From assembly GCF_937958975.1 (NCBI RefSeq), contig NZ_CALGRE010000045.1, positions 63,087-127,086 on the forward strand: a DNA stretch of 64,000 bases. The letters are read 5' to 3'. Shown piece by piece: positions 33,562 through 34,048 of this stretch. A program made the position numbers and the translations under genes. The notes under the pieces were generated by a model that was not told where the DNA came from, made no database searches, and saw nothing but the letters and a program-made list of their open reading frames with translations. The DNA is from an uncultured Eubacterium sp. Lineage in GTDB: Bacteria; Bacillota; Clostridia; Lachnospirales; Lachnospiraceae. Numbering within the stretch: the stretch's first letter is position 1; every line of letters starts with the position of its first letter.

Positions 33562-33906
33562 TTATTCATCACAAGAATTTAATATATATTGAGAAATTGC
33601 ATCAATAAAAAATGCATTTTTTGGTCTTTCAGTCAGTTCCCTACCACAAACTTCATTGAGTAATCTTCTATTTCCTGATTTCCAGATGGTATCAATTATT
33701 GTTCTGATATTTCGTTCCACGTTACTTACATTAACCTGATATTCTATGGCTATTTCTGTATAAAGCCCCTTGCAGATATAAGTAATAAGCTCTGGGTTTT
33801 GTATTGTTTTGTCAATACCATATACAGTATATTTAAAGCCCGAATAAGAACCGTCCACACCTAGTTTTCTTAACAGTTGTGTGGTCGGTTTCATATATTT
33901 TTTCAT
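33562..33906 (-). CDS. stand-alone Spo0A C-terminal (DNA-binding/effector) domain protein with no receiver domain
   Basis: Aligns by eye with the B. subtilis Spo0A C-domain: LGV..S..G..Y......I..PEL...I.KGLYTEIA......S.VERNIRT.ID.IW.SGN......V.G.....RPKN..FI.A.... Confidence 0.75.
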   Translation of the reverse strand: MKKYMKPTTQLLRKLGVDGSYSGFKYTVYGIDKTIQNPELITYICKGLYTEIAIEYQVNVSNVERNIRTIIDTIWKSGNRRLLNEVCGRELTERPKNAFFIDAISQYILNSCDE

Positions 33907-34048
33907 ATTTTCACCCCATTCTTCATAATTTCTCGTCCCCCTTAAAGTAATTTAAAGAAATATAAGGTAAAAATCAACAATTATTTGTTACAAATTTCGA
34001 CACGGTTTTACAAAGGAAGGAGAAAAGGTATATATAATGGAGCATTGC

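Follow-up and report, generated by a model that had tools for sequence, protein, structure and literature searches.

In many gut Clostridia, persistence and transmission between hosts are governed by spore formation, and genes for receiver-less forms of Spo0A are abundant on Clostridia phages and mobile elements (thousands of clusters, with several copies per genome). What does such a gene do, and for whom: for the mobile DNA that carries it, or in the sporulation network of the host? The question is posed in a very small natural test case by the stretch of DNA analysed here (the window, 64 kb from an uncultured Eubacterium sp.), in which an element of 3 kb and four functional units interrupts a sporulation gene and carries a stand-alone Spo0A effector domain. 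A sequence-only reading of the window had recognized this domain and offered three roles for it: tuning the host's entry into sporulation, regulating the element's own genes, or acting as the recombination directionality factor (RDF) of the element's serine recombinase. The idea of a receiver-less Spo0A on mobile DNA is already known (PMC10294663, PMC6907783); our concern is which of these roles the locus and its relatives favour.

The element is 3,040 bp long (one repeat copy and the 3,031 bp between the repeats), is bounded by 9-bp direct repeats, and lies within a yaaH/sleL gene in the following order:

30287..31018, plus strand: 5' part of the split yaaH/sleL gene (LysM and GH18, from the domain search)
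31010..31018: left att core (attL), CCACCTATG, invariant in three other metagenome copies
31014..32477, minus strand: large serine recombinase (LSR), 487 aa, its stop codon inside the attL core
32679..32771, minus strand: small hydrophobic peptide, copy 1, 30 aa, ending in KK; type-I-toxin-like, with a putative toxin role
33010..33096, minus strand: small hydrophobic peptide, copy 2, 28 aa from an internal ATG; type-I-toxin-like, with a putative toxin role
33321..33461, plus strand: orf46, an acidic 46-aa open reading frame (pI 4.7), probably decaying
33562..33906, minus strand: stand-alone Spo0A effector-domain (Spo0A_C) gene, 114 aa, predicted pI 8.8
34050..34058: right att core (attR), CCACCTATG, invariant in three other metagenome copies
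34059..34469, plus strand: 3' part of the split yaaH/sleL gene (domain search and rejoining)

When one repeat and the intervening DNA are removed in silico, the two parts join into a 380-aa open reading frame with LysM and GH18 domains. The rejoined protein aligns without gaps to an uninterrupted orthologue from another Lachnospiraceae genome (72% identity over 378 aa), and its PDB match is YaaH (4s3k, E 4e-85), one of the YaaH/SleL cortex-lytic enzymes. The locus shares two properties with sporulation-gene intervening elements: yaaH/sleL is split in frame and restored exactly via the 9-bp repeats in silico, and the element encodes a large serine recombinase that adjoins an att site. It likewise agrees with the mobile effector-only spo0A homologues, in that an effector domain alone is encoded on mobile DNA in a spore-forming host. 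Genes of this host include yabQ and spoIIE, the latter with an 0A box at 45272-45278 in its upstream region, and the same element occupies the same site in at least four other rodent-gut metagenomes. The attB junction predicted to form upon excision reads ...TATGGACCACCTATGGCAGTGGCTCC...; no attB or attP junction was seen in public assembled contigs. Assemblies break at 32574-32615, which suggests that related repeats occur elsewhere in the genome.

Apart from the Spo0A_C gene, the element holds the LSR, two toxin-like peptide modules and orf46, with no phage genes, and it looks like a reduced, remnant-like prophage. The LSR has Resolvase, Recombinase and Zn_ribbon_recom domains by domain search and matches the integrase family phrog_95 in PHROG (E 1e-102); its relatives are prophage integrases located at the ends of 30-43-kb viral contigs, and 34 of 80 relatives from metagenomes adjoin cotJ-operon genes, including a piece of cotJC. 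The peptide modules are a tandem duplication with a 331-bp period, each with a sigma-70-like promoter on the opposite strand (that of copy 1 at 32556-32584), and homologous small peptide genes sit just 5' of the LSR relatives. These peptides had no match in Pfam, NCBIfam or PADLOC; a weak holin match was found in PHROG (E 0.076), and copy 2 had sub-threshold Rfam matches to BsrG (E 0.22) and ohsC (E 0.5). Among four copies of the element, none of the 87 positions of peptide copy 2 varies and the toxin region is nearly invariant. The part that varies most is orf46, homologues of which occur in L101/L102 and L046, elements with related recombinases.

The product of 33562..33906 is a complete Spo0A effector domain without a receiver, as the sequence-only reading had proposed from an alignment by eye. 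In the Pfam profile search it matches PF08769 (Spo0A_C) with 96.1 bits (E 1.4e-27; curated threshold 25 bits), residues 9-108 covering model positions 2-104 of 104. The NCBIfam model of full-length Spo0A (TIGR02875), in contrast, is reached only at positions 152-252 of 262, with 52 bits against an equivalog cut-off of 200 bits; because this match is restricted to the C-terminal ~100 positions, the receiver domain is absent, and the protein, which lacks an N-terminal phospho-receiver with a phosphorylatable aspartate, falls outside Spo0A proper (the response regulator). A sequence search of the PDB gave significant matches to the Spo0A C-domains 1fc3 and 1lq1 only (E 6e-9 and 2e-8, query residues 8-105). 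From an alignment of 114 family sequences, AlphaFold2 gave a model (pLDDT 96.1) with the six-helix fold, including the helix-turn-helix, of the Spo0A effector domain: the 1LQ1 and 1FC3 chains superpose on it at an rmsd of 1.3-2.0 A (TM 0.80-0.90), and the next unrelated structural match has E 0.66.

Identity to these Spo0A C-domains is 27-29%. The recognition helix reads SNVERNIRT in the window protein and SRVERAIRH in Spo0A, so that VERxIR is kept. Its residues E64, R65 and R68, which we take to correspond to the B. subtilis residues E213, R214 and R217 that contact bases in the 1LQ1 complex, are invariant among close homologues and at least 90% conserved across the 114 diverse family members. 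The surfaces through which Spo0A contacts sigma factors (in Spo0A numbering, I229, S231, S233 and V240 for activation with sigma-A; S250, A257, D258 and L260 for sigma-H) are mostly substituted in the alignment, and because they are largely replaced, activation by the protein is not to be assumed. The recognition-helix residues, and the conserved upstream box described below, are indirect indications that the Spo0A_C protein may bind 0A boxes (TGTCGAA). That isolated Spo0A DNA-binding domains bind such boxes without phosphorylation, as the earlier reading had stated, agrees with published work (PMC3485338).

Could the gene simply be an inert passenger, left behind in a decaying prophage? The element does resemble a reduced prophage and the adjoining orf46 is probably decaying, but the substitution pattern makes this reading extremely improbable. 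In a comparison of the window with the same element in other metagenomes (copy L004 among them), the Spo0A_C gene has a dN/dS of ~0.04, with 11-13 synonymous against 2 non-synonymous changes at a dS of 0.17, the lowest value among the element genes for which substitution rates were computed; that of the LSR is 0.19. Its open reading frame, ribosome-binding site, promoter block, box and terminator are all intact in four independent metagenome copies. The value for orf46, on the other hand, is ~0.86 (10.5 non-synonymous against 2.5 synonymous changes), and for this reason we regard it as evolving neutrally and probably decaying.

Comparison with copy L004 also bears on whether the element still excises. 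The 5' and 3' parts of sleL have dN/dS values of 0.04 and 0.07, in the company of intact neighbouring genes at ~0.01-0.09; both halves are thus still constrained, unlike a permanently broken gene, which argues that precise excision probably still occurs. By analogy with skin-type elements, it would most likely take place in the mother cell. Between the window and L004, dS is 0.30-0.44 in host genes and 0.11-0.26 in element genes, so the element has been resident for most of the divergence; it co-diverges with its host.

The transcription unit of the Spo0A_C gene can be read as follows:

33465..33500, minus strand: strong intrinsic terminator directly 3' of the gene (16-bp stem, 9 G-C pairs, T tail)
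33904..33927, minus strand: 7-codon upstream open reading frame (MKNGVKI and stop), its stop overlapping the ATG of the Spo0A_C gene (ATGA)
33949..33977, minus strand: weak sigma-A-like promoter candidate, putatively assigned by eye (TTGATT, 17 nt, TAAATT)
33986..34012, minus strand: three boxes at 10-bp spacing read from the sequence, TGTAAAA-ccg-TGTCGAA-att-TGTAACA, the flanking degenerate boxes being putative
33996..34002, minus strand: perfect 0A box, TGTCGAA, 96 nt 5' of the start codon

The position of the terminator, directly after the gene, makes this a single-gene unit. The promoter candidate agrees with the consensus at 8 of 12 positions and lies under the threshold of the promoter scanner; the block is nevertheless kept in L008, L011 and L004. 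Inspection by eye of the region 5' of the gene found no convincing sporulation-sigma promoter. In two relatives (P0003 and P0004) the ATG of the upstream open reading frame is in frame with the gene and gives an N-terminal extension.

The sequence-only reading had called the box weak evidence, since the same 7-mer recurs in the window. As far as the window goes this judgement stands: TGTCGAA occurs 8 times in the 64 kb against 5.4 expected, and at least 8 times in 20 of 100 shuffles, so window-wide enrichment was rejected as evidence. It does not extend to the family, where the word is conserved. In the 200 nt 5' of family genes TGTCGAA is by far the most enriched 7-mer: it is present in 63 of the 97 distinct regions, where 2.3 would be expected, an enrichment whose P-values overstate independence because the upstream regions are evolutionarily related; the words ranked after it all overlap it. 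Of 82 family upstream regions, 57 have the exact box, mostly from -60 to -145; the background rate is 0.017 per 250 bp. Genes on mobile DNA and genes in chromosomal neighbourhoods both have it, and it occurs in either orientation, in tandem copies 10 bp apart or as inverted pairs. Tandem boxes with 3-bp spacers, like those of the window, are seen again in relatives, for example as TGACGAAataTGTCGAA in L072. Tandem 0A boxes 10 bp apart are also a feature of the abrB operator and of the 1LQ1 complex. Retention of the exact 7-mer at 31-45% protein identity, with its orientation changed, indicates selection, and the sequence comparison as a whole indicates that the box 5' of the Spo0A_C gene is a conserved family feature and not a chance 7-mer. 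Not every relative has it: L011, a close relative at a cotJC edge, is without the box. For comparison, boxes in C. difficile lie at -75 (spo0A) and -78 (sigH) (PMC3485338). Between the window and L008, whose genomic surroundings are unrelated, homology begins at the 0A box and stops just past the stop codon, which suggests that the mobile unit consists of box, promoter and gene.

The family to which the protein belongs is very large. With an E-value limit of 1e-3, a search of 1.8 billion representative proteins returned 3,071 clusters (50% identity); nearly all of the best 150 are stand-alone proteins of 100-190 aa, together with some tandem multi-domain forms, and the PHROG family phrog_24603, of unknown function, matches the Spo0A_C protein at E 5e-24. 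Close family members occur in named genomes of Eubacterium, Lachnospiraceae, Enterocloster, Dorea and similar taxa, where 3-5 copies per genome are possible and five is the maximum. A scan of a genome collection with 18 close sequences gave as its best match to the window protein one of 75% identity from a mouse-gut Eubacteriaceae / Eubacterium sp. Some rodent-gut Eubacterium/Lachnospiraceae isolates, such as Clostridium sp. 1001271st1 H5, are cultured carriers of relatives. The GenBank phage set contains no cultured phage with a Spo0A_C gene, and only three unannotated records of uncultured faecal phages in that set have one, at 31-34% identity. Judged by these matches, the window protein is a member of a very large stand-alone family and not a one-off truncation of a host spo0A.

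We surveyed the context of 100 loci, sorted by identity to the window protein. Most of those below 50% identity lie in one of two conserved chromosomal neighbourhoods: in the first, the Spo0A_C gene is divergent from genes for a response regulator with REC and HD domains and an 881-aa histidine kinase; in the second, it lies 3' of a gene for a PG_binding_1 protein, with an intact cotJ operon 0.4-2 kb further downstream in L047, L048 and L055. At 50% identity or more, in what we call the window's clade, surroundings are varied in a manner typical of mobile DNA, and the gene is found at the att-proximal edges of prophages and of mini-elements that split sleL or cotJC. In Eubacterium sp. 19-2_29, for instance, a full prophage that encodes a holin and an amidase interrupts sleL at the same Pro-Pro-Met codons; the Spo0A_C gene is its last before attR, and the downstream synteny is that of the window. 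In L034, L183 and L189 the gene sits at a prophage end, adjoining and divergent from the 3' piece of cotJC, an arrangement identical to that of the window gene with respect to sleL; in L011 a truncated cotJC is followed directly by the Spo0A_C gene. Among IMG/VR contigs, 11 of 15 Spo0A_C matches lie within ~4 kb of a predicted prophage end, and where open reading frames are listed the gene comes after the lysis genes. Distant long forms (170-197 aa) adjoin serine recombinases inside cotJC: in L068 and L072 cotJC is in three pieces, cut by two tandem mini-elements, the first of which contains little beyond a recombinase and a 170-aa Spo0A_C protein. In gut Lachnospiraceae and Eubacterium, the splitting of sleL and cotJC by prophages and their remnants is common.

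Such contexts give some appeal to the proposal that the Spo0A_C protein is an RDF or an excision-licensing partner of the LSR, which would be made as Spo0A~P rises and would bind the LSR or attR-adjacent DNA, allowing attL x attR recombination so that sleL is rebuilt. With constrained sleL halves, intact att cores and an intact LSR, excision probably still happens; known large serine recombinases need a directionality factor (PMC12286644); and, the LSR and the two toxin-like peptides apart, no protein gene of the element other than the Spo0A_C gene is constrained. The independent cotJC mini-elements of L072 and L068 have converged on little more than a recombinase and a 170-aa Spo0A_C protein, and in the window the box cluster is 38-64 bp from the attR core. 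A DNA-binding RDF has a precedent in phiRv1 Xis, which serves a serine integrase. The distribution of the family, however, does not support the proposal. No Spo0A_C open reading frame was found within 8 kb of any of the 80 closest LSR relatives (39-47% identity), a sample outside which far prophage ends fall, so that within this range the gene does not keep company with the cognate recombinase lineage. Conversely, 75 of 80 genome loci of the Spo0A_C family have no serine recombinase within 10 kb, two large sub-groups reside in conserved chromosomal neighbourhoods, and the orientation of gene and box and their distance to att differ between elements. At 114 aa and pI 8.8, the protein is also unlike the characterized directionality factors of sporulation elements, which are acidic and of 53-72 aa (PMC10747680), and both its kept base-reading residues and the conserved box of its promoter favour a transcription factor. 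The factor that the LSR needs could, moreover, come in trans, given the related repeats elsewhere that the assembly breaks at 32574-32615 suggest. We therefore consider a directionality role quite unlikely. The fuller version, by which the protein is the missing excision-licensing factor, induced through its 0A box at the appearance of Spo0A~P and either being or controlling the RDF, is in our estimation very doubtful; were it true, sleL, and cotJC in the related mini-elements, would be rebuilt under a direct tie to Spo0A, and a new class of directionality factor with a transcription-factor fold would have been found. The small and acidic orf46, with its homologues in L101/L102 and L046, was an attractive RDF candidate in its own right and was rejected, as it evolves neutrally.

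A third role, that of a regulator of the element alone, would have the Spo0A_C protein act on 0A-like operators in a lysogeny/lytic switch or in recombinase expression, the window gene being left over from that circuit. Relatives do lie at prophage ends, and in both L072 and L068 the gene and a recombinase gene diverge from an intergenic region that contains tandem 0A boxes. The neighbouring mini-element of L068 pairs its recombinase with a small XRE-type regulator, and a recombinase with one regulator may recur as a minimal set. Through 0A boxes, phages such as phi29 track the sporulation state of their host (PMC2731898). Against this role, 0A-like sites (at most one mismatch) number 4 in the element against 10 expected, with none at the recombinase, toxin or orf46 promoters, so that among the element's promoters only that of the Spo0A_C gene itself has one. 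The promoter region of the LSR is a different one, whose CATAAAATA motif is shared by phage relatives without Spo0A_C, the strong terminator isolates the Spo0A_C gene, and the distance between the boxes and the recombinase start exceeds 300 bp in L072. Purifying selection is strong although the phage genes are gone. We regard regulation of the element alone, the second role named in the earlier reading, as unlikely. Strong selection on the gene, the lack of 0A-like sites at the other element promoters and the lack of phage genes together argue that the selected targets are host promoters or a protein partner.

The tuning of sporulation entry is then the best-supported of the three roles. We propose, with a probability of roughly 45%, that the Spo0A_C protein is a phosphorylation-independent binder of 0A boxes which is switched on via its own 0A box and acts on the host's Spo0A targets. 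It would recognize TGTCGAA as Spo0A does, without phosphorylation, and the box or boxes just 5' of the weak promoter would control transcription of its gene, turned on by the appearance of host Spo0A~P, by its own product, or by both. The protein would then occupy 0A boxes of the host chromosome independently of the phosphorelay, with the result that the Spo0A programme may be reinforced, prolonged or dampened at sporulation entry. Of this chain, we infer that the protein binds DNA, what binds the box, whether the regulation is activation or competition, and how sporulation is affected. Because most relatives carry an 0A box in their own promoter, Spo0A_C genes are probably wired into the host's sporulation decision. 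The gene may be viewed as a mobile cargo ("moron") cassette of 0A box, promoter, open reading frame and terminator, which in the window's clade typically lies at the end next to att in prophages that have integrated into mother-cell sporulation genes; in the window it has been retained under strong selection in a remnant-like 3-kb element that needs excision to rebuild sleL. The locus offers a testable circuit, in which an 0A-box-controlled gene encodes a predicted 0A-box binder without need for phosphorylation: it might work as feedback, as a latch or as a competitor, placed by mobile DNA into the sporulation decision.

Three groups of known systems help to place this locus. The first is Spo0A and its mobile derivatives. 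The window protein has, over its full length, the fold of the Spo0A C-domain of B. subtilis and G. stearothermophilus, with VERxIR and a TGTCGAA box as at autoregulated spo0A promoters, but it has no receiver or hinge, it is multi-copy and mobile, its family signature is ERNIRT where Spo0A has ERAIRH, and the surfaces for sigma-A and sigma-H are mostly replaced. Human-gut phages are described in parts of Schwartz et al. 2023 (PMC10294663) as carriers of effector-only truncated spo0A homologues for which a bypass of the phosphorelay was suggested, and parts of Jiang et al. 2019 (PMC6907783) report enrichment of PF08769 on mobile elements of gut Firmicutes. Our gene shares with these phage genes the effector domain alone, residence on mobile DNA of gut Clostridia and the hypothesis of phosphorylation-independence; it differs in its carrier, a 3-kb non-phage element in sleL which otherwise has only a recombinase and toxin-like modules. 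Those parts of the two papers make no mention of a conserved 0A box, an att-edge position or selection data, and our literature searches found no experimental study of any stand-alone member of the Spo0A_C family. What is new here is the family-wide promoter 0A box, the att-edge position in elements that split sleL or cotJC, the dN/dS of 0.04 and the constrained sleL halves.

The second group comprises the sporulation intervening elements skin (sigK), SPbeta (spsM; SprA/SprB), gin (gerE; GirC/GirX), skinCd (CD1231/CD1234) and yin (yabG). Like these, the 3-kb element has an LSR at one end, short direct repeats and a precise in-frame split of a mother-cell sporulation gene, and small non-phage forms exist among them (gin, PMC5595907). 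Unlike these, it has no recognizable small acidic directionality factor under constraint, and its excision is predicted from sequence alone. In the portions of the intervening-element literature available to us, yaaH/sleL is not among the interrupted genes named, the name cotJC occurs in two papers, and a Spo0A-domain gene is not mentioned for skin, SPbeta, gin, skinCd or yin.

The third group consists of mobile genes that manipulate sporulation entry: DevI of ICEBs1 (PMC8032392), phage sigma factors (PMC9429907) and phage Rap-Phr systems. The Spo0A_C gene resembles them as mobile cargo aimed at the sporulation decision network; they act on kinases or the phosphorelay, or replace sigma factors, whereas the Spo0A_C protein would act at the DNA sites of Spo0A itself.

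The recombinase of the element falls within a prophage-integrase clade, at 39-47% identity (metagenome loci L101-L180 and viral contigs L196-L275). Genes of the cotJ operon, including a piece of cotJC, directly adjoin the recombinase relatives at 34 of the 80 metagenome loci, in both orientations, and prophages that split cotJC therefore seem to be common in the gut Clostridia of humans and animals. At L068 (6574-13907) and L072 (4418-8379), two adjacent mini-elements leave cotJC in three pieces: the first carries a recombinase and a 170-aa Spo0A_C protein (with an M15 peptidase in addition at L068), and the second a different recombinase and a 79-aa XRE-type regulator. 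At L114 (983-4810) and L117 (6726-12190), both among the recombinase relatives, the plus strand carries the recombinase and, after it, the 3' piece of cotJC; another 0.7-2.3 kb on, the minus strand carries cotJA-cotJB together with the 5' piece. Restoration of cotJC at these loci would need inversion instead of excision.

Sporulation sigma factors typically use CATA-type -10 elements, that of sigma-K being CATAnnnTA. About 20 nt 5' of the recombinase start lies CATAAAATA (window 32495-32503), which several phage relatives (L199, L215, L220 and L221) keep, preceded there by a TGTTATTTTTATAC block; because a CATA-type -10 is typical of these sigma factors, the motif hints at expression of the recombinase in the mother cell. 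About 30 nt 5' of the orf46 start lies CATAAAATG (window 33281-33289). The orf46 product (window 33321-33461) is acidic (pI 4.7), and has homologues in the elements with the closest recombinases (L101/L102 and L046); at L101 the homologue is the first of a gene run that continues with a zinc-ribbon protein, parA and parB. A 56-aa ORF occupies the equivalent position at L118, its likeness to orf46 judged by eye only and jackhmmer giving no match. In the element of the window orf46 evolves neutrally (dN/dS about 0.86).

Two further features are a 0A box elsewhere in the window and a short ORF at the start of the Spo0A_C gene:

45272-45278: perfect 0A box, 97 nt upstream of a spoIIE-like gene (45369-47078)
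33904-33927: 7-codon upstream ORF, its stop overlapping the main start of the Spo0A_C gene (ATGA)

The spoIIE-like gene matches TIGR02865 with an E-value of 5e-77 and a score below the cut-off, and the distance of its 0A box (-97) is nearly equal to that at the Spo0A_C gene (-96). A single-base difference from the relatives P0003 and P0004, in which the same stretch forms an N-terminal extension (MKNxG...), makes it a separate upstream ORF here.

More distant stand-alone Spo0A_C proteins include two sub-families. At 37 of 86 loci (L054, L056, L062, L070, L073-L099 and others) the genes of the first (35-42% identity) have a conserved position, pointing away from neighbouring genes for a REC + HD-domain response regulator and for a histidine kinase of 881 aa; 0A boxes also lie upstream of these Spo0A_C genes, and together these may form a chromosomal signalling module with the receiver on a separate protein. 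The other (41-47% identity) is encoded directly 3' of a PG_binding_1 protein gene (L045, L047-L052, L055, L059, L063, L069, L097 and the viral contig L190), with an intact cotJ operon 0.4-2 kb further downstream at L047, L048, L055 and L190. Multi-domain proteins also exist (P0012, P0016, P0044, P0127 and P0118): some are made up of 3-5 tandem Spo0A_C domains (428-849 aa), and one, of 1,003 aa, has three Spo0A_C domains followed by repeated helix-hairpin-helix-like units.

The element also carries a repeated small-peptide module:

32478-33230: hydrophobic-peptide module in two tandem copies with a 331-bp period, the peptide 28-30 aa long and ending in KK

Among four copies of the element, only 0-2.5% of positions vary in this region, against 6-10% in the flanking genes. 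Within the repeat, at 32574-32615, assemblies from two metagenome studies break and run on into different sequence, which suggests that the same stretch also occurs elsewhere in the same genome. A search of curated families with the hydrophobic peptide gave no match; homologues of its gene lie directly upstream of related recombinase genes in five phage loci (L113, L115, L118, L128 and L131). Each module copy has a sigma-70-like promoter on the strand opposite to the peptide gene; the module looks like a type I toxin-antitoxin pair.
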